Shown here piece by piece: positions 2 to 61,898 of a stretch of DNA of 64,000 nt. Origin of the DNA: Deltaproteobacteria bacterium. Its GTDB lineage: Bacteria; Desulfobacterota; Desulfobulbia; Desulfobulbales; JAJRZW01. The position numbers and the translations under genes were made by a program. Below the pieces are notes generated by a model. That model made no database searches. It saw only the letters and a list, made by a program, of their open reading frames with translations, and was not told the origin of the DNA. The stretch is from assembly GCA_024275015.1 (NCBI GenBank), contig JAJRZW010000001.1, forward strand, positions 706-64,705, in the 5' to 3' direction. Positions within the stretch are counted from its first letter, which is position 1; each line of letters starts with the position of its first letter.

Positions 2-712
2 TTCGACGCCGCCCTGGAGCTTGGTTTTGAACTTTTTCAGGGGTATTTTTTCAAGAAGCCGCATATCCTCAGCGGCCTTGATATACCGGGGGCAAAGCTG
101 CAATATCTTGAGATTCTGCGGCTGATACGTAATGAATTTTATGATTTTGACCATCTTTCCCGGCTTATTGCCGATGATGTATCCCTTTCCTATAAACTTC
201 TGAAATATGTTAATTCCCCCTGTTACCGCCGTCGAAGTGAGATAAGGTCGTTAAAGAGTGCTGTCGCCCTGGTGGGGGAGGAGGAACTGCGTAAGTGGCT
301 GTCGTTGGTGATGATGAGTGATATGGCCGAGGACAAGCCCGACGAGTTGGTGCGCCTGGCAGTCATCCGGGGGCAGTTCTGCGAGATTCTCGGCGGGGAG
401 ATTGAGGGGGAGAAAGGTCGCGATCGTTTTCATACCGTGGGTATGTTTTCACTCCTTGACGCCCTCCTTGACCGTCCCATGGATGAGCTTCTGGCTGAGC
501 TGAATTTCAGCGATGAGATTAATCATGCCCTGACCGGTAAGTCAGGGGGACTTCTTGCTCAAGTCCTTCATTTGGTCAAGGCCTATGAGATGGGGGCATG
601 GGAGCGGGTGACCCGGGCGGCGGATTCCCTCGGCCTTGACACTGACCGTCTGCCGGAGATATTCATCGTCGCCCTTGAGCGTTCCCGTTATTTCGAGGCC
701 CTGCTCAATTGA
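2..712 (+). CDS. EAL/HDOD-domain signalling protein, 5' end outside window
   Basis: Frame is open from the window edge. The visible N-terminus ends an EAL-type domain (ELFQGYFFKKP) and is followed by an HDOD-like region (LKYVNSPCYRR, ALVGEEELRKWL). ORF-track 272..712 is its tail. Confidence 0.7.
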   Translation, partial: FDAALELGFELFQGYFFKKPHILSGLDIPGAKLQYLEILRLIRNEFYDFDHLSRLIADDVSLSYKLLKYVNSPCYRRRSEIRSLKSAVALVGEEELRKWLSLVMMSDMAEDKPDELVRLAVIRGQFCEILGGEIEGEKGRDRFHTVGMFSLLDALLDRPMDELLAELNFSDEINHALTGKSGGLLAQVLHLVKAYEMGAWERVTRAADSLGLDTDRLPEIFIVALERSRYFEALLN

Positions 713-738
713 AAAAGAGGGAAGACGGGAAAGGCCCC

Positions 739-790
739 GACGCTTTTTCCGAAAATCGCCGAAGACGCCTCCGCGGGGAATTACGAGACC
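739..790 (+). repeat. family-B repeat copy B1
   Basis: CGCTTTTTCCGAAAATCGCCGAAGACGCCTCCGCGGGGAATTACGAGACC, immediately after the HDOD gene stop. Confidence 0.75.
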
Positions 791-878
791 ATCTTTTTTT
801 CCCTTCCCCATCCGCCGCGGTCAATGGCGAAATGTTATTTTACCGGAGCCGTCTGCTTTTGCGGGCATGGGAGATGGG

Positions 879-2939
879 TCAGACGGACATTCTTGAGAAA
901 TCCCCCACCCGGAGAAAGAGGGCGGCCACCCGGCCAAGCAGGCTTACGCGGTTGTCGCGGCGTCTTTCGTCTTCGTCCATGACCATGACCTGATCGAAGA
1001 AGGTGTCAACCGGGTCTTTCAAGGCGAGAAAGGCGCGCATGGCGGCGGTGAAATCTCCGGCCGCGAGTTTTGGCCTTGCCTCTTCTTCGACCCGGACCAG
1101 GGCGGAGTAGAGTTCTTTTTCCTCAGCCTCGACCAGCAGGGCGGGATCAACGGTGCCGGGGATCTGGTCCTTGATGATGTTTCGCACCCGCTTGAATGAC
1201 CCGGCGAGGATGGCAAAGGCCTTGTCTTCACTGATTTCGACCAGGGCTCTGATCCTGCGGTCGGCTTCGGGGATGGAGTCAAAATGCACCGAGGTGACCG
1301 CCTCCACCGCTGCCTGAGACCAGGTGGTGCCGCGGTCGTTGACGTAGCGGCCGCGGATAAAGGCGATGATCGCGGTCAGGGTCTTGGCACCGTCCCTGCT
1401 TACTTTGTCTCCGAGAAGAGCAAGGCTCTTTTCGGTTAATTCGCCAAGGGAGATATTCAGGTCATGGGCGGCGATGAGGTGGATCAGGCCAAGGGCCAGA
1501 CGGCGGAGACCGAAGGGGTCGGTATTGCCGCTTGGTTCCTTGCCGATGCCGAAACAGGCGCTGATGGTGTCGATGCGGTCGGCGATGCCGACAATGGCCC
1601 CGGTTTTTGATTGCGGCAATGCCGCCCCGGCCCGCACCGGCATATAATGCTCGGCAATGGCAAGGGCGATTTCGGGCGGGATGCCTTCGTTCCGGGCGTA
1701 TTCCCGGCCCATGATTCCCTGCAGCGACGGAAATTCGGCGACCATTTCGGTGAGGAGGTCGGCCTTGGCCAGACGGGCCGCGGTCATTGCCGTGTCCGTT
1801 TCTTCCGGAGCCGCCTTGGCGCATATCCATTCTGCCATGGCGGTGATGCGGTCACTCTTTTCGCGCATGGTTCCGAGACCGGCCTGGAACACCACCCCGT
1901 CGAGCCGGGGCAGAAGCTCTTCAAGACGGTGGTTCCTGTCTTCACGGAAGAAGAATAACGCGTCTTCGAGCCGGGCCCGGAGTACCCGTTCATGGCCCCG
2001 GACCGCGAGGTCGTCGTTGCCGGTGTCGAGGTTGTTGATGGCGACGAAGTTGGCCCGCAGCTCGCCTTTGTCGTCGACCACGGCGAAATATTTCTGGTGC
2101 TCGCGCATGGAGGTGATCAGGACTCCGCGCGGCAGATGGAGGAACTTATGGTCAAATGAGCCGGCCACCGCGTGCGGCATTTCGACGAGGTTGGTTACCA
2201 GGTCGAGGAGGGCGTCATCTTCAAGGAGATGGCCACCGGTTTTTTCCGCCGCCGCCCGGGCCTGTTCGATGATCATCTCCCGGCGTTCGGCGATATCGAC
2301 GATCACTCCGGCCCGGCGCATCTGTTCGCGGTAATTATTCGGAGTGACGGAAATGGCGGCCGGGGTGGTGAAGCGGTGGCCGCGGCTTTCCCTGCCGCTT
2401 CTGATTTCGTTGATGGCGCAGTCTATTACTTTTTCGCCGAATATGGCGACGATCCACCGTACCGGTCGGGCAAAGGCGTCCCGGCCCGAGCCCCAGCGCA
2501 TGGATTTGGGGAACGGGATCTGGCTGATGATTCCGTTTAATACCGGGGACAGCAGGGCGGCGGTGTCCTGACCGCGGTTTTCCACCACCGCCATCAGGTA
2601 GTCGCCCTTATCGGTCTTGATGGTCTTGAGGTCGGATAGTTCCACTCCCCGGGTACGGGCAAAGCCGATGGCCGCCTTTGTCGGCTTGCCGTCGGGGGCA
2701 AAGGCGGCTTTTTTCGGGGGGCCGGTCACTTCTTCGCGTCGGTCTGCCTGCCTTTCCGGCAGACCGGTCACCACAAGGGCCAGACGGCGCGGGGTTCCGG
2801 CGGTGCTGATGTCGTTGTATTCGAGGCGGAGGGCCGCCAGCTCTTTCGCTATTTTTCCGGCCATAAAATTGAGGGCGGGGGTGATGTATGCCGCCGGGAT
2901 TTCCTCGGTGCCGATTTCAACTATAAGATCATTGGCCAT
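879..2939 (-). CDS. glyS: glycine--tRNA ligase beta subunit
   Basis: 686 aa ORF with a typical GlyS N-terminus (MANDLIVEIGTEEIPA) and GlyS length. Confidence 0.95.
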   Translation of the reverse strand: MANDLIVEIGTEEIPAAYITPALNFMAGKIAKELAALRLEYNDISTAGTPRRLALVVTGLPERQADRREEVTGPPKKAAFAPDGKPTKAAIGFARTRGVELSDLKTIKTDKGDYLMAVVENRGQDTAALLSPVLNGIISQIPFPKSMRWGSGRDAFARPVRWIVAIFGEKVIDCAINEIRSGRESRGHRFTTPAAISVTPNNYREQMRRAGVIVDIAERREMIIEQARAAAEKTGGHLLEDDALLDLVTNLVEMPHAVAGSFDHKFLHLPRGVLITSMREHQKYFAVVDDKGELRANFVAINNLDTGNDDLAVRGHERVLRARLEDALFFFREDRNHRLEELLPRLDGVVFQAGLGTMREKSDRITAMAEWICAKAAPEETDTAMTAARLAKADLLTEMVAEFPSLQGIMGREYARNEGIPPEIALAIAEHYMPVRAGAALPQSKTGAIVGIADRIDTISACFGIGKEPSGNTDPFGLRRLALGLIHLIAAHDLNISLGELTEKSLALLGDKVSRDGAKTLTAIIAFIRGRYVNDRGTTWSQAAVEAVTSVHFDSIPEADRRIRALVEISEDKAFAILAGSFKRVRNIIKDQIPGTVDPALLVEAEEKELYSALVRVEEEARPKLAAGDFTAAMRAFLALKDPVDTFFDQVMVMDEDERRRDNRVSLLGRVAALFLRVGDFSRMSV

Positions 2940-2948
2940 TTTTTATCC

Positions 2949-3671
2949 CTATCCTTCTATCATTGCGAAGGTGCTGTATCCTTCGGAAAGGTTTTTTACC
3001 TTGAGGGAAAACCACTTGATGGCCGCAAATTCCGTAAGCGCACGTCCAAGGGCCTGGGCCATGCCCTCGACCGTGGGTGAGAAATTGTCGCCGTCAAGCC
3101 CGTCATTATGGCGCAAGATCGCCTCTTCCGCCAGGTTAATTATCTCTTCGATCCAGGCGAAATATTCAAACCGTACCTTGAGGATCGCTTCGCCCCAGCG
3201 TCCCCGGGACCGGGGCATTAATTCACGTATCGGCGCCGGCGGCGTGAGTCTGATGGGGATTTTGACCTCAAGGGTGAGTTTTTCCTCGCGGCCGAGGGAG
3301 CCGTGCAGGCGGCAGGCGTAGCGGTCCATTTCGACCCGGACCGGGGCTGGTCGCGGTCGTTTGACAAAAAAGGGGAAGGCTATTTCCACATGGGCCTCTT
3401 CGGCCTCGAGGTGGTCTTTCATCTCTTCGAGGATGCGGTGGAAGCTTTTGATGTCGATCCGGTCGCGATGGTGGTTGAGGATTTCGACAAAGCGGCTCAT
3501 GTGGGTGCCCTTGAAGTGGTGGGGCAGATTGACGAACATGTTTACCGAGGCGATGGTCTGCTGTTCGCGGTTGGCGCGATCAAGCACGGTGATCGGGTAG
3601 GTGATTTCCCGGACCCCGACCTTGCGGATGTTTATCAGGCGGTGGTCAGGTTGGTTCTGGATGTCTTTCAT
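2949..3671 (-). CDS. folE2: GTP cyclohydrolase FolE2/MptA family
   Basis: 240 aa with FolE2-like motifs (RKVGVREITYPITV, NLPHHFKGTHMSRF). Lies directly upstream of glyS. Confidence 0.8.
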   Translation of the reverse strand: MKDIQNQPDHRLINIRKVGVREITYPITVLDRANREQQTIASVNMFVNLPHHFKGTHMSRFVEILNHHRDRIDIKSFHRILEEMKDHLEAEEAHVEIAFPFFVKRPRPAPVRVEMDRYACRLHGSLGREEKLTLEVKIPIRLTPPAPIRELMPRSRGRWGEAILKVRFEYFAWIEEIINLAEEAILRHNDGLDGDNFSPTVEGMAQALGRALTEFAAIKWFSLKVKNLSEGYSTFAMIEG

Positions 3672-3838
3672 CGAAGGTCAGGTGATTTACTGGTTCGTGA
3701 TGAAGGTTACGGTTACGGGTTCAGCGTGAATCTGTCCCGGGAAATTTTGCCTGGGAGTGACGCGGTCGCGAATCGGTAAAAAAGGCCTGCAGACACGGGG
3801 CCGGCAGGCCGTGGGATGGGGCCATGAGGATGAAGGAC

Positions 3839-4192
3839 TTATTTTTTCAGGACCCTGGCCACTGTCTCCCGCAGTTCGTCAAGGTCGGCGGATTTGACCA
3901 CAAAGGCGTCGCAGGCCCAGGAGGAGAGGTCCTGTTTGTATTCCTGATAGGCGGAACTGAGGATTACCGGCAGGTTGCTGTTGTCTTCCTTGAGTTTGCG
4001 CAGGACCTCGATGCCGTTGATCCCCGGCATCTGGATATCGAGGATGATCAGATCGGGGTTGAGGGCCGGGACCAGACGCAGGGCCTCCTCGCCGTTCATG
4101 GCTGAATGGACTTCGTAGCCTTCGTTTTCGAGTTCATCGCGAAATAGCAGATGGATTGACTCTTCGTCGTCGACAACCAGGATTTTTTTCAT
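3839..4192 (-). CDS. single-domain CheY-like response regulator
   Basis: 117 aa receiver domain starting MKKILVVDDEE, with DIQMPGINGIE. ATG at 4192. The 283-aa ORF-track extension runs into galT-like coding sequence in another frame. Confidence 0.9.
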   Translation of the reverse strand: MKKILVVDDEESIHLLFRDELENEGYEVHSAMNGEEALRLVPALNPDLIILDIQMPGINGIEVLRKLKEDNSNLPVILSSAYQEYKQDLSSWACDAFVVKSADLDELRETVARVLKK

Positions 4193-4235
4193 TGGTTTAT
4201 CTCCCTGTTTCCGTGATCTGTAGCATGATGATCCA

Positions 4236-5234
4236 TCATATTTCCGCGTCGCGGAGGAACGATGCCGCTTCTTCCGGGGGCATGGGATTGATATAGAAAC
4301 CGGAACCCCATTCAAAACCGGCGATTTGGGTGAGTTTGGGCATGATCTCGAAATGCCAGTGAAAATGTTCAAGGGGATTTTCCCGTAAGGGGGCGGTGTG
4401 GAGAACGAAGTTGTAGGGGACGTCTTGTATGCAGGCGTCAAGCCTCCGCATGCAGTCGGAAAAGATGGCGGCAAGGGACTTGAACTGCGGTTCGGCCATA
4501 TCGATATATGATGAGCCATGGACGGTGGGCATGATCCACATTTCAAACGGCGACCGGGGCGCGAACGGGGTAATGGCGATGAAGTCGTCGTTGTCGGCGA
4601 CAATCCGCACTTGCTGTTTGCGTTCCTGACGGATGATGTCGCAGAAGATGCAGCGTTCCTTATAGCCGTAATAACGTTTGCTGCCCTCAAGTTCGCTGAC
4701 GATCATTCGGGGGAGAATCGGCAGGGCGACCAGTTGCGAGTGGGAATGCTCAAGGGAGGCCCCGGCGGCGTGGCCGTAATTTTTGAAGACCATGACGTAT
4801 TTAAAGCGGGGGTCGCGACCGAGGTCGATAATCCGGTCGCGATAGGCCCAGAAGACCTGAACCATCCGTTCAACCGGCAATTGCGCGAACGACAGGTCGT
4901 GTTCCGGGATCTCGACGATGACCTCATGGGCGCCGATGCCGTTCATCTTGTCGTAGATGCCGTCGCCTTCCTTGCCGATCTCGCCTTCGATGATCAGGGC
5001 GGGGAATTTATTCGGTACCACCCGTAGATTCCATCCGGGTTTGTTGGGGGCGGGGACGGCCCGGCCGTAGCTCAGAACCTCGGGCGGGGTGGTATTTTCG
5101 TGCCCCGGACACAGGGGACAGAAACCCTCACGGGTGGAGACCCGGTCGATGACAAAATCGGTGGGTCGCTTGGAACGCTCGGTGGCGATGATGATCCAGC
5201 GGCCAAGGATGGGATCGCGACGCAGTTCAGGCAT
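4236..5234 (-). CDS. galactose-1-phosphate uridylyltransferase-like HIT-superfamily enzyme
   Basis: 332 aa from MPELRRDPILGRWIIIA. Contains the CPLCPGHE zinc motif and the HSHSQL histidine-triad motif. Start trimmed so it does not overlap dksA. Confidence 0.8.
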   Translation of the reverse strand: MPELRRDPILGRWIIIATERSKRPTDFVIDRVSTREGFCPLCPGHENTTPPEVLSYGRAVPAPNKPGWNLRVVPNKFPALIIEGEIGKEGDGIYDKMNGIGAHEVIVEIPEHDLSFAQLPVERMVQVFWAYRDRIIDLGRDPRFKYVMVFKNYGHAAGASLEHSHSQLVALPILPRMIVSELEGSKRYYGYKERCIFCDIIRQERKQQVRIVADNDDFIAITPFAPRSPFEMWIMPTVHGSSYIDMAEPQFKSLAAIFSDCMRRLDACIQDVPYNFVLHTAPLRENPLEHFHWHFEIMPKLTQIAGFEWGSGFYINPMPPEEAASFLRDAEI

Positions 5235-5241
5235 GATCTGC

Positions 5242-5604
5242 TCAGCCGGCCTTGGCGTTTTCCTGCTGTTCCTGCCGGGTTTTGCAGTCAATACAGTATG
5301 ACGCGACCGGACGGGCCTTAAGTCTTTCGATTGCGATATCGTCGCCGCATGACTCGCAGATGCCGTAGTCACCGCTGTCGATCTTGTTTATGGTTGACTG
5401 GATCTTGGCAAGGAGCTTGCGTTCCCGGTCGCGCAGGCGTAACTCAAAACTGCGGTCTGACTCTGCCGCGGCCCGGTCGGCGGGGTCAGGGTAGTTGTCG
5501 TTGTGGTCGGTCATATCAACAAGGGTCTTTTCAGCTTCTCCCAGGATTTCCCTGCTCATGTCCTCAAGCCTTTCCCGAAAGTGAACCAGATTCTCCTTAT
5601 TCAT
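5242..5604 (-). CDS. dksA: DksA/TraR family C4 zinc-finger RNA polymerase-binding regulator
   Basis: 120 aa with a coiled-coil region and the CESCGDDI...CIDCK four-cysteine finger. Confidence 0.85.
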   Translation of the reverse strand: MNKENLVHFRERLEDMSREILGEAEKTLVDMTDHNDNYPDPADRAAAESDRSFELRLRDRERKLLAKIQSTINKIDSGDYGICESCGDDIAIERLKARPVASYCIDCKTRQEQQENAKAG

Positions 5605-5720
5605 ACCATATCTCCGCGAATTTACTGTTTTGGCACCGCCGTTGTTAGGCTTTGCGTTGATTCTATCAGATCGGGATCTGATTGCTTAAACACTTTTTGA
5701 TTTTTATATTCCCTGGTTCG

Positions 5721-5877
5721 TAACAGACTGTTGAAAAAGCCGTCCTGCCTTTTTCAACTCCCGGTTGGCCAAAACAAGTTCCGGCCAACCTCTCGATTTT
5801 ATTGGATTTTAAAAACCCAATAAAATCGGCGGTGCGTCGATGCACCGCGACCAGTCCGTTTTTTAACGGACTGGTAA
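5721..5877 (+). mobile_element. family-A MITE copy A1 (multi-hairpin, ~155 bp)
   Basis: TIR CAGACTGTTGAAAAA at the left and its inverted copy at the right. Flanked by direct GTAA/GTAA. Four internal hairpins. Confidence 0.8.
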
Positions 5878-5909
5878 CCCAAAAGGCTGATTGTTAAAGG
5901 GGTCATTTT

Positions 5910-7013
5910 TCAAGAAGCCATGCGAAACAATTTTTTTAGAAATCCTTCATCAGCGGTACTGTTTTCCTCTTCAAGGACGGCGAATTCCTCAAGCAGTTCT
6001 TTCTGTCTCGATGACAGCTTTTTTGGGGTTTTTACATCAACCTCAATGATCATATCACCGGTGCCGCCACCACGCAGCCGCGGGATTCCCTGTTTTTTAA
6101 GCCGCAGGGTGTCGCCGGACTGGGTCCCGGCCGGGACCTCAAGGGTCTTCTCTCCGTGGATGGTCGGAACCTCTATGCTGCATCCGAGGGCGGCCCTGGT
6201 CATGGAAAGAGGCAGGCGCAGGTGTATATCGGCACCGTCGCGGAGAAAAAACTCATGCGGTTCAACATAGAGAAAGACGTAGAGGTCTCCAGGTGGACCG
6301 TGGTGGCGACCGCCTTCACCCTCGCCGCTGACCCGCATCCGGGCGCCATGATCAACCCCGGCCGGGATTTTCAGTGACAGCCTTTTGCTTATCTCCTTGA
6401 GCCCATGCCCATTACAGACCTTGCACGGATCTTTGATGACCCGGCCTTCGCCCCGGCAGGTGGGACATGTGGTGCTGACCCGGAAAAATCCCTGAGAACG
6501 GATGACCTGACCCCGGCCCCGGCATTCGGGACATGTCTCGGCCTCCCGGCCTTCCCTGGTCCCGGATCCCCGGCACTCATCGCAGGTATCGGCGCGAGTG
6601 ATCTCGATTTCCTTTTCAGTTCCGAGAGCGGCGTCCATAAAGGTGATGTTGAGATCAAAACGGAGGTCGGCCCCGCGGATCGGGCCGTTTTGAGTCTGCC
6701 TTGCGCCGCCGAAACTGAAGAGATCGTCGAATATGTCGCCGAAACTTGAGAATATATCGTTGAAATTTCCCGGGCCCTGATAGCCGCTGTTTCTGAGTCC
6801 GTCAATGCCGTATTGATCGTATATCTGCCGCTTTTTCGCGTCGCCCAGAACTTCGTAGGCCTCGGCCGCTTCCTTGAAGCGTTCTTCCGCCTCTTTATTG
6901 TTTGGGTTGCGGTCGGGGTGATATTTGAGCGCCAGTTTCCGGTAGGCCTTTTTTATCTCTTCGGCCGTGCTGGATTGGTCAACCTTTAATGTCTGATAAT
7001 AATCCGTACCCAT
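5910..7013 (-). CDS. dnaJ: molecular chaperone DnaJ (type I, with zinc-finger domain)
   Basis: J-domain (YHPDRNP), a G/F-rich region and four CxxCxGxG repeats. Confidence 0.9.
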
Positions 7014-12277: not shown

Positions 12278-12622
12278 ATGTTTGGTATCGGTCTGCCCGA
12301 GTTAATTCTGATTATGGTCATTGCCCTGCTGGTGGTGGGGCCGGAGAAATTACCCGGCCTGGCGCGAACCATTGCCGGCTATGTGGTGGAGTTGAAAAAG
12401 GCCGCCAATACCCTGAAACAGAGCCTGAACGACGAAGAAGATCAGCGCCCCTGGGAAGGAACGCCGCGGGACTTTACCCTGCCGGAAGGGTTCTCTGCCG
12501 CGACTGGAATCGTGCCGGAACCGGAACCGGAACCGGAGAACGTGGACGCGCAGCAGGCGGCCCCTGCTGATACCGTCCCCGAATCCGGCCACGACCCTGA
12601 GGTCGAAGAAACCGATGGCTGA
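12278..12622 (+). CDS. tatA: twin-arginine translocase TatA/TatB-family subunit
   Basis: MFGIGLPELILIMVIALLVVGPEKLP is a canonical TatA/B N-terminus. Long acidic, Pro-rich tail. ATG 12278 preferred over GTG 12269. Confidence 0.85.
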   Translation: MFGIGLPELILIMVIALLVVGPEKLPGLARTIAGYVVELKKAANTLKQSLNDEEDQRPWEGTPRDFTLPEGFSAATGIVPEPEPEPENVDAQQAAPADTVPESGHDPEVEETDG

Positions 12623-17571: not shown

Positions 17572-17729
17572 TTAACAGACTGTCGAAAAAGCCGTCCTGG
17601 CTTTTTCAACTCCCGGTTGGCCAAAACAAGTTCCGGCTAACCTCTTGATTTCACTGTAATTTTTCAACCCGGTGAAATCGGCGACGCGTCCGTGCGCCGC
17701 GACCAGCCCGTTTTTCAACGGGCTGTTAA
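17572..17729 (+). mobile_element. family-A MITE copy A3
   Basis: Full copy flanked by TTAA/TTAA. TIRs CAGACTGTCGAAAAA and TTTTTCAACGGGCTG. Confidence 0.8.
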
Positions 17730-23438: not shown

Positions 23439-24838
23439 TGCATATCCTCCAGGTTGCGGCCGACAGCGAGGGAAAGTTCGGCTGTGGCTGTTCCCAGTTG
23501 CATTTGCGCCGTTGAAAGGGCGAGACGGTTGTTAAGCCAGGCGTCATCAGCCCGGGTGAGGGCGGTAAAGCTGATACTCCCGGCCTCGAGACCGCGGCGG
23601 GCGACGGCAAGGGCGGCCCGGGACAGGGGGACGACGTGTTCTTTAAGCAGTTTAATCCGCCGCCGGTGACGGTCGGCTGTATCCCAGGCGTCGCGGGCTG
23701 TGCCCCGGGCCCGGTGTTTTGCGGCCTTGACTTTTTCATCGGCCGCGTTTACCGCGAGGCGCAGACGTTCAAGGTAAAAGAGGTTGGCGCCCTTGAATCC
23801 GTCCGTTATCCGTCCGGTGGCGGTCATTTTTTTATCCGTGAACCTGCCGCTGATTTCGCCGCCCATACGTCGCGACAGACCGGCGCTGAAGTCGGGAACG
23901 GCCATGAAACGGCCGAGATCGTACATGGTCGCCAGCGTCAGACGGCGGTTTTTTGCCAGCCGCAGGTCAAGGTTTGTCTGTTCGGCCGCGGCGATCATCG
24001 CCTTTGGGTCTGGCGGCGTCGGCGTTGTCGCCGGGGGGATGAAGGTGAAATGGTCAATGGGGGCAGCGCAGAGTTCGAAGAGGTCGCGGCGCAGGGTCTT
24101 TTCCTCTTCTTCAAGATCGCGGAGCCGGGTGGTGAGTTTTTGTTTTTTTATCCGGATGGCGATCACCTGTCCATAGGGGGTCTTGCCGCTGCTATAGCGC
24201 GTCATGGCGACCTTTTCGAGATCACGGAAAAGTTTAAGACTTTTGCCGGTGAGGCCTTGGGCGGTCTGGTTATGGATCAGGCGGAAATAGAGTTTCCGGC
24301 CCCGGGTTATGGCCCGGGCAATGGTCTTTTCCCTCGCGATTCGGGCCTGTTCCACCTCAAGGGCGGCAAGGCGGCTGCGCAGGCTCGCTGATTGCGGCAG
24401 GGCAAGGTCGGTGGTGGCCATTTTTACCGGCCCGACCCCGGGGGCAAGCCCGGCAGTGAAGGATTGATAGGTGGAAAGGAGGTCGTTGATCGCCTGCTCC
24501 TGGCCGTATGTCTCGATCCTGGCCGCCACCGTGGCCCGGGTGCTTTTAATCGCGGGGTTATGTCTCAGGATGAGGGCGCTTAAACGGTTGAGTTCGTTGT
24601 TGCGGTCAAGTCCGGCCTGATCGATGAACGGGATGGTGGTATCGGCGGCGACAGTGATTTTCGCCGTTTCCAGGGATGGGGCCGCCGGGCGTTCTGTCTG
24701 GGGCATGGTGGCCGGTTCGAGGCCTGCCGCGGCCTCGGGCGGTGCGGCAAAAAGCCGCTTTTGTTCGCCGTAGGTCGCGGCGCAGGCGGGGATGGTGGCG
24801 ACGATGGCCAGAAGCATCAAGGTGGTCCGGATGGTCAT
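23435..24838 (-). CDS. TolC-family outer-membrane efflux protein (second of a tandem pair)
   Basis: 467 aa with a signal peptide and coiled-coil-rich TolC/OEP-like repeats. Overlaps both neighbours by 4 nt. Confidence 0.8.
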   Translation of the reverse strand: MTIRTTLMLLAIVATIPACAATYGEQKRLFAAPPEAAAGLEPATMPQTERPAAPSLETAKITVAADTTIPFIDQAGLDRNNELNRLSALILRHNPAIKSTRATVAARIETYGQEQAINDLLSTYQSFTAGLAPGVGPVKMATTDLALPQSASLRSRLAALEVEQARIAREKTIARAITRGRKLYFRLIHNQTAQGLTGKSLKLFRDLEKVAMTRYSSGKTPYGQVIAIRIKKQKLTTRLRDLEEEEKTLRRDLFELCAAPIDHFTFIPPATTPTPPDPKAMIAAAEQTNLDLRLAKNRRLTLATMYDLGRFMAVPDFSAGLSRRMGGEISGRFTDKKMTATGRITDGFKGANLFYLERLRLAVNAADEKVKAAKHRARGTARDAWDTADRHRRRIKLLKEHVVPLSRAALAVARRGLEAGSISFTALTRADDAWLNNRLALSTAQMQLGTATAELSLAVGRNLEDMQ

Positions 24839-34777: not shown

Positions 34778-35059
34778 TTACGATTCAAGTTTCCTTTGCG
34801 GCGATTTTTCCGGGGCGACGCCTTTTTTTTCAAGTTTTTTCAGGTAAATGTCGGGCTGGGCACTGATGGCGTCGTCGCAGCCGCGGCAGCAGACGTAGAC
34901 CCGTTTCCCTTTCACGTCCACATAGATATTGCGGTCGATTTCACCGCCCATGACCGGGCAGCGGATCTGGGGACGCATGCCTTCCTTTAAGTCATTTTTC
35001 GTTCGGGTGCAGGCCCCGCACAGGAAAAGTAGCGGTAGCAGGGTGAGAAAAAAAATCAT
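34778..35059 (-). CDS. YHS/TRASH-like domain lipoprotein
   Basis: 93 aa from MIFFLTLLPLLFLCGAC (lipobox). CPVMGGEID...KRVYVCCRGCDDAISAQPDIY resembles a YHS metal-binding domain. Confidence 0.55.
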   Translation of the reverse strand: MIFFLTLLPLLFLCGACTRTKNDLKEGMRPQIRCPVMGGEIDRNIYVDVKGKRVYVCCRGCDDAISAQPDIYLKKLEKKGVAPEKSPQRKLES

Positions 35060-35264
35060 CTTAACCTTTTTTTTCCCTCCCTGTTTGCGCAGGGAGGGGA
35101 TGGCCGGAATAGAGGACGTGACTCGGTCGCATCCCTGCTCCAGGACTGTTGTCCTAACCCTCACTTTTTCAGGTGGTTTTTTCATCGGCTTGTTCCATGG
35201 GGTAAGTAGTTTGTCAATCCGGTTAGGGAAAGATGCCGTGGGGGCTCTATAGCCCGGGGTACTC

Positions 35265-35477
35265 TTATCAGACCGTTGAAAAAGCCGTCCATGGCTTTTC
35301 AGCCATAGTTGCTGAATCCGTGACGGCTTAGTGGCAACCGAGTATATATTTATCTGAATTCATGCGTTTTTTACCGGAATTTCACTCCGGCGGAAATTTT
35401 ACCCCGCCGCCCTTCGGGCGTCCGGGAACGGCGCGTCCATGCGCCGCGTACAGTCCGTTTTTCAACGGACTGTTATA
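35265..35477 (+). mobile_element. family-A MITE, long variant A5
   Basis: Family-A termini with a divergent interior. Flanked by TTAT/TTAT. The right flank supplies the TAA stop of the response-regulator gene. Confidence 0.7.
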
Positions 35478-36138
35478 CATCGGTGATTCCGTGTTTTATC
35501 GCAAACTTGACCAGGGCGGGAATATTAGGGGTTCCGAGTTTCTTCATCAACCGACTGCGATAGGTCTCGACGGTTTTGGCCGAGATGAAGAGGATTCCGG
35601 CGATCTCGGTGCTTGATTTTCCCTATACCACCAGTTGAACGATCTCCCGTTCCCGGGGGCTTAATGACTTCAACGGCCCGTTTTTTTTCAGCCGCATTCC
35701 CTTGGAAAGCAACTCATCGGCCATGGTCCCGGATATCCTCCGGGCCAGGTATCTTTTTCCCCGGGCCACGGTTTTTATGGCCAGAACCACTTCCTGACCG
35801 GCTGATTCTTTGAGGAGATATCCCGTTGCCCCGGCGTTGAGGGCCTGGTGGATATATTCACTGGTGGCGTGCATGGACAGAATGATCACCCGGCATTCCG
35901 GGCAGGCGGTGACGATTTGCAGGGTCGCTTCGATACCGTTCATCTCCGGCATGGCGATATCAACCAGGGCCACATCGGGGCCATGCTCCCTGACCATCCT
36001 GACCGCCTCCCGGCCGTTGGCGGCCTCGCCGACAACCGTGATTCCGCCGGCGGCGAGAAGGCTTTTTAATCCTTCCCGGACAATTCGGTGGTCATCGGCG
36101 AGAAGGATCCTGATATTTTTCGTTTCATACCTCGACAC
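35473..36138 (-). pseudogene. NarL/FixJ-type response regulator interrupted by an in-frame TAG
   Basis: Receiver domain (RILLADDH, DIAMPEMNG), then [43 protein letters not shown]. The stop at 35623-35625 sits where LuxR HTH domains usually have E/Q. Confidence 0.75.
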
Positions 36139-37411
36139 TTATACTTGTTCCCTCCCCGGGGGCCGAGTTCAGTTCCATCCTGCCGCCGATGGCGGTTATC
36201 CTCTCCCGCATGGCAATTATGCCCAAGCCGGAAGCCTCGTCCCCGGAGGTTTCCCGGGTAAAGCCGATACCATCGTCGTTTATCGTCATCCTGGTGCAAT
36301 CCTGTCGGTGTTCGATTCTTACGGTGACGCTGTGGGCCTTGGCGTGTTTGACCACGTTGGTCAACGCCTCCTGGGCGATACGGAACAGGGGCGTTTCCAC
36401 ATTTTCCGTAAGCCTCAGGCCCGGCTCATCGTCGATGATATCTATTTTTAATCCGGTCCGCATGGCTATTTTGTCGCTATAACAGCGAATCGCCGCCGCA
36501 AGTCCGTGGTCGTCGAGGTTGCTTGGTCGCAGTTCCGACATGATGTCACGGATCTCCTCGGTGCTTTCCTCAATGAGACGGAAGGAGTCGGCGAAGAAGG
36601 TTTCCGCCTCTCCTGAGTCATCATGTGTGAACCGATTTTTGATGATGTTGAGGTTGAGGTTGAGGGCGCTCAGCTTCTGCCCGACCCGGTCGTGCAGTTC
36701 GATGGCGATTTTTCGTTTTGCCGACTCTTCAAGATTGGCAAGGCGGGCGGAAAATATCTTCAGTTTCCTCTCGGCCTTTTTCTCCAGGACAAGACTGCGG
36801 CCGGCCCTGAACGCGAGGAGAATGATCAGAACCCCCAGGATCATGGAGATCAGGTAGGTGGCCATGTTTGAGTGGGCGGCAAGGCTGCCAAGCTCCTTTT
36901 TGCTTTTTGTGATGTCGTAATATATCTCAAAAACCCCGATTACCCTGCCACTTCTTATGATCGGGACATAGGTCTCGACCAGGTCGAATTTGTGTAGATC
37001 GCCGTAACGGTTCAGCCCCTCTTTCCGGCTGAGCAGGGTATGGGTTTCGCCGGTCCGGATGATATCTGGGAAGAACGTCTTGCTGGTGTTGCCGCCGATC
37101 TCGGTATGATAGGTGGAATAGACGATTACTCAGTCGGGGGAGTAGACCTTGATTTTCCACAGGCCGATCAGCTTTTTGGTATTTTCGATTTCGCGGATGA
37201 AGTCCGCGGGGAGGTTGTCTTTTGACAGATTGCTGACCTCGATGAGATGAAATGATATCTGGTGGGCGATATTTTCAACCACTTTTTCCGTTTCCCGGAC
37301 GATAAATCCATTATACAGGGGGTTGATTACAAAGATGGAGTAAAGGGGGAGAGTAATGATCGCGACAAAGGCGATAACGACAAAAAGGCGGAGGATTTTC
37401 AGTCTGGGCAC
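36125..37411 (-). pseudogene. HisKA_3/HATPase sensor histidine kinase interrupted by an in-frame TGA
   Basis: Same frame across the stop: TM1, a sensor domain (KVYSPD-TGA-VIVYSTYHTEIGG...VETYVPIIRSGRVIGVFEIYYDIT), TM2, the ELHDRVGQ H-box, and an ATPase domain. Stop at 37130-37132. GTG start at 37411 after GGAG. Confidence 0.7.
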
Positions 37412-37446
37412 ACCCGGCTCCGTTTCGGAATTAAAGAGAAGTAACT

Positions 37447-37575
37447 TCTCAGATCGTTGAAGAAAGCGTCCATGGCTTTTAAACCCCGGTTGACCAAAAC
37501 TTTGTTTCGGCCAGCCTCTCAATTTCGCTGGCGCGTCCCTGCGCCGCACACAGTTCGTTTTCCAACGGACTGTCA
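37447..37575 (+). mobile_element. family-A MITE, shortened copy A6
   Basis: Family-A termini with an internal deletion. Overlaps the ORF-track N-terminal extension of the kinase. Confidence 0.65.
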
Positions 37576-37938
37576 TGATTGTCCACGAATATCTTCCTAT
37601 GGATATTAATGCAATGATTTAGTCCATTTCTTTAAGCCGCGAGTGTCTGGGAACGGGTCAGGTGTAAGTGGGGAACTATGTTGATTATCCTTCGGTATAT
37701 CAATGGGTTGTCCGTCATGCAACCGGCCTGTTTCCTGGAATCCTTCAGGGCGTCAGCATGAGCCCCGACAACTTTAGGCAGACAAACAACAACGTTATAA
37801 CAATTGGTTGGGTTGCTTCCCGCCGCTATCGTCATGGATCCAGGCATTTATCAAAGACTCCCTACAGATAAAACAAACAGACCTGGTTAATAATAAAAGC
37901 GCATACATCATGCATGGAAAATATTTTCCTTTGTTTTC

Positions 37939-37982
37939 CCCTCCTCCGGCCCCCCCTATTGTCCCGGAGGAGGGTTTTTTTT
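37939..37982 (+). terminator. strong orphan rho-independent terminator
   Basis: 11-bp stem CCCTCCTCCGG/CCGGAGGAGGG followed by T8. No annotated gene upstream on the + strand. Confidence 0.7.
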
Positions 37983-37990
37983 AAGGGTAT

Positions 37991-38127
37991 CTTGAAAATG
38001 GCCTTTTCGCCCGATCCCGGCGTCATGAGCAAAATGAAAAATGCTCACATATTCTCGATATGCTACGCTTTTTAATTTTGCTTATTCCTTGGCCTCGGAC
38101 GAAAATCCTCATTTTTCAAGATACCCT
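37991..38127 (+). repeat. family-C repeat copy C2
   Basis: Aligns end to end with 8766-8902. Confidence 0.75.
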
Positions 38128-38282
38128 TAACAGAGTGTTGAAAAAGCCGTCCTGTCTTTTTCAACCGTCGGTTGGATAAAACAAGTTTCATCCAACCTCT
38201 CGATTTCACCGGGTTTTTTAAACCGGTGAAATCGGCGGCGCGTCCATGCGTCGTAACAGCCCGTTTTTCAACGGGCTGTTAC
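38127..38282 (+). mobile_element. family-A MITE copy A7
   Basis: Full copy with flanks TTAA/TTAC. Confidence 0.75.
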
Positions 38283-38387
38283 GGCAAATCCCGTGGTAAT
38301 TTCATTTCCAATTATATATATTGCGGACGCAGACAGAGTTTTTCTTGCCTTTCGGCTTTTTGCCGCAGGTCTTTCCCGGGTTTTGAT

Positions 38388-38822
38388 ATGCGCCAGGACG
38401 AAGTTCCACAGGATGAGGGTATTGCCGAGGGGTTGGTCGAGGTCACCTACGCGGTTGATGATGACGGGCATTATACCCAGGTCGGCAGCGCCGGATGGGA
38501 ACCCAAGAATATCTCCAATCATCAGGCATGGGAAGAGATCGTGAAAAAGGTCGAGGCGGTCCGGGCCGAAGTCGAGGCCGGGCGGGTATCGCCGTTGGCC
38601 TTTCACATGGCGAGAAACCAGATGGAGGCGGGGCTTCTGGCAAGCTATATGGGGCTTTTCCGCTGGCAGGTGCGCCGTCACCTTAAACCGGCGGTATTCG
38701 CCCGGCTTGAGTCCGAACTCCTTGAACGCTATGCCGCGATGCTCAGGACCACGGTGGCGGCCCTGGGCGACATTAATCTTGCCCCGGAGATGAAGATTCC
38801 CGGCAGCCGCGGGGGGGCATGA
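38388..38822 (+). CDS. hypothetical protein (possible HTH-like), first gene of a three-gene cluster
   Basis: 144 aa from MRQDEVPQDEG. Its stop overlaps the next start (ATGA). The ORF-track N-terminus lies in MITE A7. Confidence 0.5.
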   Translation: MRQDEVPQDEGIAEGLVEVTYAVDDDGHYTQVGSAGWEPKNISNHQAWEEIVKKVEAVRAEVEAGRVSPLAFHMARNQMEAGLLASYMGLFRWQVRRHLKPAVFARLESELLERYAAMLRTTVAALGDINLAPEMKIPGSRGGA

Positions 38823-61740: not shown

Positions 61741-61898
61741 TTAACAGTCTGTTGAAAAACGGACTGTATGCGGCTGATGTCCGCGCCGTCGATTTTGCCG
61801 GGTTGAAAAACCCGGTGAAATCGAGAGTTCGGCCGGAAATTGTTTTGGCCAGCCGGAGAGATAAAAAGCCATGGACGGCTTTTTCAACAGTCTGTTAA
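61741..61898 (-). mobile_element. family-A MITE copy A13
   Basis: Full copy flanked by TTAA/TTAA. TIRs CAGTCTGTTGAAAAA and TTTTTCAACAGTCTG. Confidence 0.8.

Follow-up and report, generated by a model that had tools for sequence, protein, structure and literature searches.

In a 64-kb stretch (64,000 nucleotides, hereafter the window) of contig JAJRZW010000001.1 from an uncultured Desulfobulbales bacterium, two adjoining genes for a sensor histidine kinase and a response regulator were each found to be interrupted by a single in-frame stop codon, and the pair is probably a genuine, recent double nonsense knock-out of a classical two-component system. Near-invariant Gly and Glu residues appear to have been lost by one G-to-T change each, with no other decay in either gene, and the very recent inactivation proposed in an earlier note, which was made from the letters of the window alone, is therefore the explanation favoured here.

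Reading frames and domains of the two genes

The HisKA_3/HATPase_c sensor kinase gene occupies 37411-36125 on the minus strand. By translation, its frame opens with a GTG at 37411-37409, comprises 428 sense codons and closes with its own TGA at 36127-36125; the TGA at 37132-37130 (codon 94, within the peptide KVYSPD-stop-VIVYST) is the sole internal stop. The REC+GerE (NarL-type) regulator gene adjoins it at 36138-35473 on the same strand and was translated from a GTG at 36138 to a TAA at 35475-35473, with the TAG at 35625-35623 (codon 172) as the sole internal stop. The kinase frame with its one TGA and the regulator TAG are thus as the earlier note had described them. Pfam was run on both proteins with the stops masked, and all four domain matches exceeded the curated cut-offs: HisKA_3 (PF07730, 7e-11, 43 bits against a cut-off of 24, residues 233-298) and HATPase_c (PF02518, 2.6e-14, 54 bits against a cut-off of 26.4) in the kinase, and Response_reg (PF00072, 2.5e-29, residues 11-121) and GerE (1e-19, residues 157-213) in the regulator. 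The GerE domain was recognisable only when the TAG was read through. The features of the two genes, with their respective sources, are as follows.

36125-37411, minus strand: sensor histidine kinase gene with one internal TGA (translation; Pfam; ortholog P0001)
37418-37421, minus strand: Shine-Dalgarno sequence GGAG of the kinase gene, 6 nt upstream of the GTG start (read from the sequence)
37130-37132, minus strand: in-frame TGA of the kinase gene, codon 94, in place of a conserved Gly (translation; homologues)
36911-37249, minus strand: periplasmic sensor domain, about residues 55-167, predicted to be PAS/PDC-like (structure model of P0001; Foldseek)
36518-36715, minus strand: HisKA_3 dimerisation/phosphoacceptor domain with the H-box ELHDRVGQ (His240) (Pfam; alignment)
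36131-36400, minus strand: HATPase_c catalytic domain with intact N, G1 and G2 boxes (Pfam; alignment)
36125-36865, minus strand: longest open reading frame (ORF) left 3' of the TGA, 246 amino acids (aa), from the ATG at 36865 (ORF list; P0003)
35473-36138, minus strand: NarL/FixJ-type response regulator gene with one internal TAG (translation; Pfam; orthologs)
35776-36108, minus strand: receiver domain with D15, D16, D60, S88 and K110 intact (Pfam; translation)
35500-35670, minus strand: GerE (LuxR-type) helix-turn-helix domain (Pfam; ortholog comparison)
35623-35625, minus strand: in-frame TAG of the regulator gene, codon 172, within GerE, in place of a conserved Glu (translation; homologues)

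Homologous residues at the two stop sites

The closest ortholog pair was found on the ENA metagenome contig L001, with a kinase (P0001, 428 aa) that is 66% identical to the window kinase and colinear with it without gaps, and with a regulator of 217 aa that is 73% identical to the window regulator. A second ortholog pair is carried by the Joint Genome Institute (JGI) contig L026, and the intact 217-aa regulator orthologs P0123 and P0122 are 73-74% identical.

The kinase TGA stands where Gly is found in 28 of 29 homologues, that is, in all eight aligned homologues possessing the sensor domain and at 20 of 21 GTDB genome loci, the exception being Ser; L001 has GGA and L026 has GGT as the corresponding codon. 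At the regulator TAG, Glu is found in 117 of 119 homologues and Asp in the other two, encoded by GAA in L001 and GAG in L026. Each stop is one G-to-T step from the codon predicted to be ancestral (GGA to TGA and GAG to TAG, respectively). The earlier note had proposed both of these steps, and the GGA in L001 and the GAG in L026 bear it out. It had expected Glu or Gln at the second site, of which Glu is indeed usual and Gln does not occur among the 119 homologues. Its placement of the TAG between the receiver and the helix-turn-helix needs correction, since the codon lies within GerE, after the first helix.

That homologues might naturally end at these positions had been named as an observation that would count against inactivation. 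No homologue ends at either stop, the 119 regulator homologues being 213-234 aa long and the kinase homologues at least 428 aa. Judged by sequence comparison, both genes thus show the pattern of recent pseudogenes, with a sense codon one step away in homologues and none of these ending at the stop.

Condition of the rest of both genes

Beyond the two stops, neither a frameshift nor a further stop was found in the kinase or the regulator gene. The kinase residues E238, L239, H240 and D241 of the H-box correspond to invariant alignment columns, and the invariant residues Q347, E348, N352, H356, D379, G381, G383, F384 and G397 are also kept. The expression signals of the kinase gene are still in place, with GGAG 6 nt before the GTG, and GTG is the start codon of the L026 kinase gene as well, at the homologous residue. 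At the 71 regulator columns with conservation of at least 95%, the window regulator deviates at one besides the stop (Ser to Ala), compared with 0-3 in the intact orthologs. The claim of the earlier note that everything else in both genes looks intact therefore stands, the catalytic motifs, the Shine-Dalgarno sequence and the colinearity with the ortholog all being kept.

No acceleration was seen in relative-rate comparisons with L001. Lineage-specific changes in the regulator numbered 12.0 for the window and 16.7 for L001 (mean over 18 outgroups), and those in the kinase numbered 23 and 34, and 20 and 37, for the window and L001 with the two nearest outgroups, respectively. The ratio of nonsynonymous to synonymous substitution rates (dN/dS) against L001, which the earlier note had suggested computing for the flanking segments, was 0.18 before and 0.19 after the stop in the kinase and 0.25 before and 0.16 after the stop in the regulator, and thus lay within 0.16-0.25 on either side of each stop; with dS at about 1, these values show long-term constraint only and give no date for the hits. 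Since both genes are otherwise intact, with no acceleration and no frameshift, the event is considered recent.

Termination at TGA and TAG in the window

The perfect preservation of both frames past the stops would also be expected if TGA and TAG were read as sense, whether as selenocysteine (Sec), pyrrolysine (Pyl) or Gly, by a suppressor tRNA or through leaky termination, so that full-length proteins were made, possibly in a regulated manner. The Gly position of the kinase TGA speaks for such programmed recoding or suppression as well, since in genetic code 25 the codon UGA stands for Gly; Sec and Pyl, for their part, occur in some of the former Deltaproteobacteria. Nevertheless, TGA ends 37 and TAG ends five other genes in the window, a count that takes in the end of the kinase gene itself, and most of these genes were confirmed as full-length by Pfam. 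Both codons are thus ordinary terminators here, by which a reassigned code is excluded, and an alternative code (UGA as Gly in code 25, or UAG as Pyl) was rejected because both codons end other window genes.

Further signals of recoding were sought around the pair. No Rfam family, the selenocysteine insertion sequence (SECIS) included, was matched in 35200-38400 even at E-values up to 10, and the 80 nt past each stop folded no better than shuffled sequences (z of +0.37 for the kinase TGA and -0.10 for the regulator TAG). A search for suppressor tRNAs, as the earlier note had advised, returned no tRNA with the anticodon UCA or CUA in the 64-kb window, in which only tRNA-Leu(CAG) and tRNA-Leu(TAA) were confirmed. 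The homologous residues are Gly/Ser and Glu/Asp at the two sites, never Cys and not Lys, and neither TGA-G nor TAG-G is among the classically leaky stop contexts. The kinase was also considered as a selenoprotein gene and rejected as such, with neither a SECIS 3' of the UGA nor Cys in homologues. Because TGA and TAG terminate other genes, and because no SECIS, no structure and no suppressor tRNA were found in the window, recoding is unsupported and is judged extremely improbable. The stop-codon read-through offered in the earlier note is thus not borne out, the homologues having Gly and Glu at these sites. A version in which both stops are partly read through, and the doses of kinase and regulator are set jointly at translation termination, is disfavoured by the same evidence and is hardly to be believed either.

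Products expected from the interrupted genes

The kinase is laid out as a first transmembrane helix (TM1), a periplasmic PAS/PDC-like sensor, a second transmembrane helix (TM2), a coiled coil, HisKA_3 and HATPase_c. Its closest solved relative in sequence searches is DesK (2e-24), followed by VraS (1.6e-21), and both were also matched by Foldseek. The gene is of the HisKA_3 type (DesK/NarX class), with the H-box and the catalytic domain present and the frame interrupted; because of the TGA at codon 94, it is a member of the class by descent and is predicted to be non-functional.

Residues 1-230 of the kinase gave no Pfam family match, and no solved structure related by sequence was found for the sensor domain (about residues 55-167). 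The AlphaFold2 (AF2) model of P0001 has a mean predicted local distance difference test score (pLDDT) of 75, with 76-89 across the sensor, and it predicts a transmembrane helix, a PAS/PDC-like domain of helix and five strands, and a second transmembrane helix. In this model, G94 would form the tight turn of a beta-hairpin between the strands 84-90 and 95-99. Full-length PAS/LOV kinases and WalK were matched when the model was submitted to Foldseek.

Two motifs of the sensor domain, K-[IL]-x-[IVL]-[FY]-x-x-x-G-x-[IV]-[IVL]-[FY]-S-[ST] and DVVETYVPI...G.FEIYYDIT, were noted at the loci L002-L023. The domain recurs in metagenome-assembled genomes (MAGs) labelled Desulfobulbaceae, Nitrospirota, Geobacteraceae, Spirochaetaceae and Gemmatimonadota.

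The change from GGA (Gly94) to TGA would end the kinase in the first beta-hairpin of the sensor, leaving 93 residues that comprise TM1 and a sensor fragment; as the protein ends in the sensor, no kinase core is to be expected from the normal start. The next in-frame start is the ATG at 36865, which is located at TM2, 88 codons past the TGA, and has no Shine-Dalgarno sequence upstream.

The regulator is of the NarL/FixJ type by its receiver, and its GerE domain is not translated in one piece with that receiver. The change from GAG (Glu172) to TAG would end it after 171 residues, which comprise the receiver and the first helix of the helix-turn-helix; left with this one helix of its DNA-binding domain, the product could not bind DNA.

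As for the start of the regulator, GAGG-N6-ATG directly follows the kinase stop in L001; GAGG-N6 is likewise present in the window, where the homologous start codon (36123-36121) reads ACG. The only in-frame start is the GTG at 36138, five codons upstream of the ACG, with GGAGG 12 nt before it. The 14-nt overlap of the two genes follows from accepting this GTG as the start. The ACG may be a lost start codon, which would make a third lesion, or may reflect plain start-site drift. In an ATGA overlap (36128-36125), the ATG does not share the frame of the receiver. The possibility of a frameshift where kinase and regulator join was considered for this reason and was rejected in favour of either a start at the GTG (36138) or the loss of an ATG.

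Both remaining ORFs keep complete domains (the receiver at residues 11-121 in one, HisKA_3 and HATPase_c in the other), and public gene calls treat both as proteins: the call for the source contig uses the 246-aa ORF (P0003, 100% identical), and the 171-aa truncated regulator is also present (P0121). Stand-alone receivers, moreover, exist in the window (3839-4192). The pair might accordingly be thought rewired, with the 171-aa receiver serving as a phosphate sink or single-domain regulator and the 246-aa sensor-less kinase being constitutive or intramembrane-sensing. This is very unlikely, given that the ATG at 36865 lies after 88 untranslated codons and lacks a Shine-Dalgarno sequence and that neither architecture occurs naturally among the homologues retrieved. 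Furthermore, the 49 regulator codons past the TAG have kept 86% identity with the ortholog, which leaves no time in which a new role could have arisen.

Proposed course of the double loss

In the double nonsense knock-out favoured here, the two G-to-T substitutions would have been independent events that are causally linked, the second being tolerated or favoured after the first. Both the reality of the changes in the organism and this link are inferred; that the hits fall in one operon fits the link. The partner gene may, once the first hit had occurred, have been freed from selection, both by the loss of function and by polarity of the untranslated kinase message on the downstream regulator. 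Alternatively, the partner may have been selected against, if a regulator without its bifunctional kinase/phosphatase were over-phosphorylated by acetyl phosphate or cross-talk and regulator nulls were favoured as a result. Two nonsense changes without an excess of missense changes mildly favour selection over drift. A selected paired knock-out, in which the second hit compensates the first, and an on/off polymorphism kept in the population, which at strain level had been among the proposals of the earlier note, would both be options.

Integrity of the window and authenticity of the two bases

The rest of the window was examined for interrupted genes. Its gene map holds 57 genes, about 50 of which were scanned with Pfam, and no truncated gene was found by domain coverage among the approximately 50 other than the pair; the intact genes include glyS, dnaJ, purA, tatC, cydAB, cusCBA-like efflux genes and ribF, together with those for citrate synthase, GlnRS, GluRS, UvrD, PFK and Fur. 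A window-wide frame-continuity scan with codon scores, in which an ORF, a stop and a further ORF in one frame were sought, revealed no other interrupted gene; its other top candidates were rejected as same-frame adjacent genes (CusB/CusA, rpoZ/dnaJ and others) or shadow frames. No N was present in the window sequence. Two stops in such a clean window are a sign neither of general decay nor of poor assembly.

A second sampling of the species was sought in several collections. Protein searches returned nothing closer than the L001 pair (66% and 73% for the kinase and the regulator, respectively), and an exact-cluster look-up gave singletons for all four proteins submitted (the two truncated gene calls, citrate synthase and GlnRS). 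The best match in a scan of GTDB species representatives had 30% identity, and two exact-DNA scans of JGI metagenomes, one spanning each stop and with the mutated base masked as N, found none. The window GlnRS, by which the organism is placed in Desulfobulbales, is 71-76% identical to those of Desulfurivibrionaceae, Desulfobulbaceae and Thiovibrio, and its nearest protein is 84% identical.

Several points weigh against the double knock-out as set out above. Both bases rest on a single consensus sequence, the species having been found once in the collections searched. G-to-T changes are the signature of oxidative (8-oxoguanine) damage in library preparation. About 3% of random substitutions in the two genes would create stops; two nonsense changes with no missense excess therefore favour selected loss or an artefact over simple neutral decay. 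Which of the two hits came first, and what they meant for fitness, is also only inferred.

These points bear on the explanation that GGA and GAG are the true codons of the organism, or of the bulk of its population, and that the two Ts were introduced by low coverage or oxidative damage or through a minority strain chosen by the assembler. Such a consensus or assembly artefact, or minority allele, would account for two changes that are both G-to-T on the same strand and for stops that are not accompanied by excess missense changes. The sequence appears to be metagenome-assembled and the species is sampled once, and the authors of a comparable case could not separate authentic mutations from artefacts (PMC9638458). 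Against it, about 50 other genes, with about 54 kb of coding sequence, are without a stop, a frameshift or a truncated domain, and the error rate of the consensus is therefore low. Two random errors would, in addition, have to be both nonsense and both in this pair. Single-base nonsense targets number 4852 in the window genes, of which 189 (3.9%) belong to the kinase and regulator genes, so that a second random nonsense change would fall there about 4% of the time (a probability of about 0.04). On balance, an artefact or minority allele is considered unlikely, and a true double knock-out is the better account of the two stops.

Repeats and neighbouring features

Six copies of a structured repeat of about 95-110 nt are dispersed over intergenic parts of the 64 kb, where none would be expected by chance. 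The copies lie at 35379-35473, 37479-37573, 38185-38279, 17632-17726 and 5780-5874 on the minus strand and at 61744-61838 on the plus strand. Hairpin 1 of the repeat is ACAGTCCGTT-GAAAA-ACGGACTGT, the consecutive hairpin 2 is GCGGCGC-ATGGA-CGCGCCGC and hairpin 3 is GATTTCACCGG..CCGGTGAAATC. Pairing is kept through changes on both sides at 6 of 28 predicted pairs. The repeat has no Rfam match and looks like a family of the repetitive extragenic palindrome or miniature inverted-repeat transposable element (REP/MITE) kind. Two copies in which only hairpins 1 and 2 are conserved bracket the kinase-regulator pair as direct repeats, and as two-hairpin copies they are placed as follows.

37530-37573, minus strand: upstream copy of the dispersed two-hairpin repeat (repeat analysis)
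35430-35473, minus strand: downstream copy of the dispersed two-hairpin repeat, beginning in the regulator TAA (repeat analysis)

A mobile cassette between these flanking direct repeats was considered and rejected, since the repeats belong to the dispersed six-copy family, the guanine-plus-cytosine (GC) content is not distinctive and no mobility genes are present.

Between the kinase start and the divergent gene at 38388, the stretch 37412-38387 is non-coding, unusually long (976 bp) and richer in AT (44-48% GC), and contains two of the hairpin-repeat copies and only a weak sigma-70-like match. Directly downstream of the regulator, a small ORF at 34778-35185 on the minus strand combines a lipoprotein-like signal (LLFLCGAC) with a Cys-rich segment (CPVMGG...VYVCCRGCDD) that recalls YHS/TRASH metal-binding domains. 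It had no Pfam match at 1e-3. It might serve the two-component system as a target or partner, but it is not conserved next to the orthologous pair of either L001 or L026. On L001, two HisKA_3/NarL-type pairs and a hybrid PAS kinase are located within 6.5 kb (554-6476). With such paralogous pairs, the lineage may be redundant in this system, and one copy could then be lost more easily.

Two ARAGORN calls in the window, tRNA-His (anticodon ATG) and tRNA-Ser(GCT), at 24240-24326 on the plus strand and 12512-12590 on the minus strand, were set aside as probable false positives; they fall in Pfam-supported genes (OEP outer-membrane factor, TatA), and neither was confirmed by Rfam.

Comparison with known systems and meaning of the finding

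In its domains and gene order, the pair resembles DesK/DesR, NarX/NarL and VraS/VraR, in which a HisKA_3+HATPase_c kinase is likewise encoded first and a Response_reg+GerE regulator next, in adjacent or overlapping genes. It differs from them in the sensor of its kinase, which belongs to no Pfam family, and in the premature stops of both genes.

The interruption of a kinase and its cognate regulator with intact neighbours has a counterpart in Streptococcus infantarius CJ18, in which blpH and blpR both have premature stops and the authors were unable to decide between real mutations and sequencing artefacts (PMC9638458). That system differs from the present one in consisting of a peptide quorum-sensing kinase and a LytTR-type regulator, in belonging to a host-associated Firmicute with known genome decay, and in having other strains available for comparison. 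The selection of null mutations in a partner regulator by loss of its kinase, as proposed here, also has a parallel. In S. pneumoniae, ciaR suppressor (null) mutations arise when ciaH and ackA are inactivated (PMC4295557), which was shown experimentally in a defined background (ackA inactivated), whereas for the window pair it is a proposed scenario. What selenoprotein genes have in common with the window kinase is a TGA within the frame of a gene that is intact otherwise, in a Thermodesulfobacteriota genome. They differ in that the window kinase has no SECIS-like hairpin, that its homologous residue is Gly and not Cys, and that its TGA would lie, according to the P0001 model, at a structural beta-turn of a periplasmic sensor and not at a redox centre. 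Double nonsense in a two-component pair is thus an ordinary event with published precedent and is not novel in kind.

The finding is of consequence chiefly for annotation: the two genes are to be marked as pseudogenes, or as alleles with internal stops, of a single HisKA_3/NarL system, and not given as a 246-aa 'kinase' and a 171-aa 'receiver'. The Pfam-less sensor domain, widespread in MAGs of Desulfobulbales, Nitrospirota and Spirochaetes, is a modest lead in itself. If the alleles are real, the pair would be a small, clean example of the coupled loss of partner genes, and nonsense hits without other decay would hint at selection against the orphaned partner and not at neutral drift.

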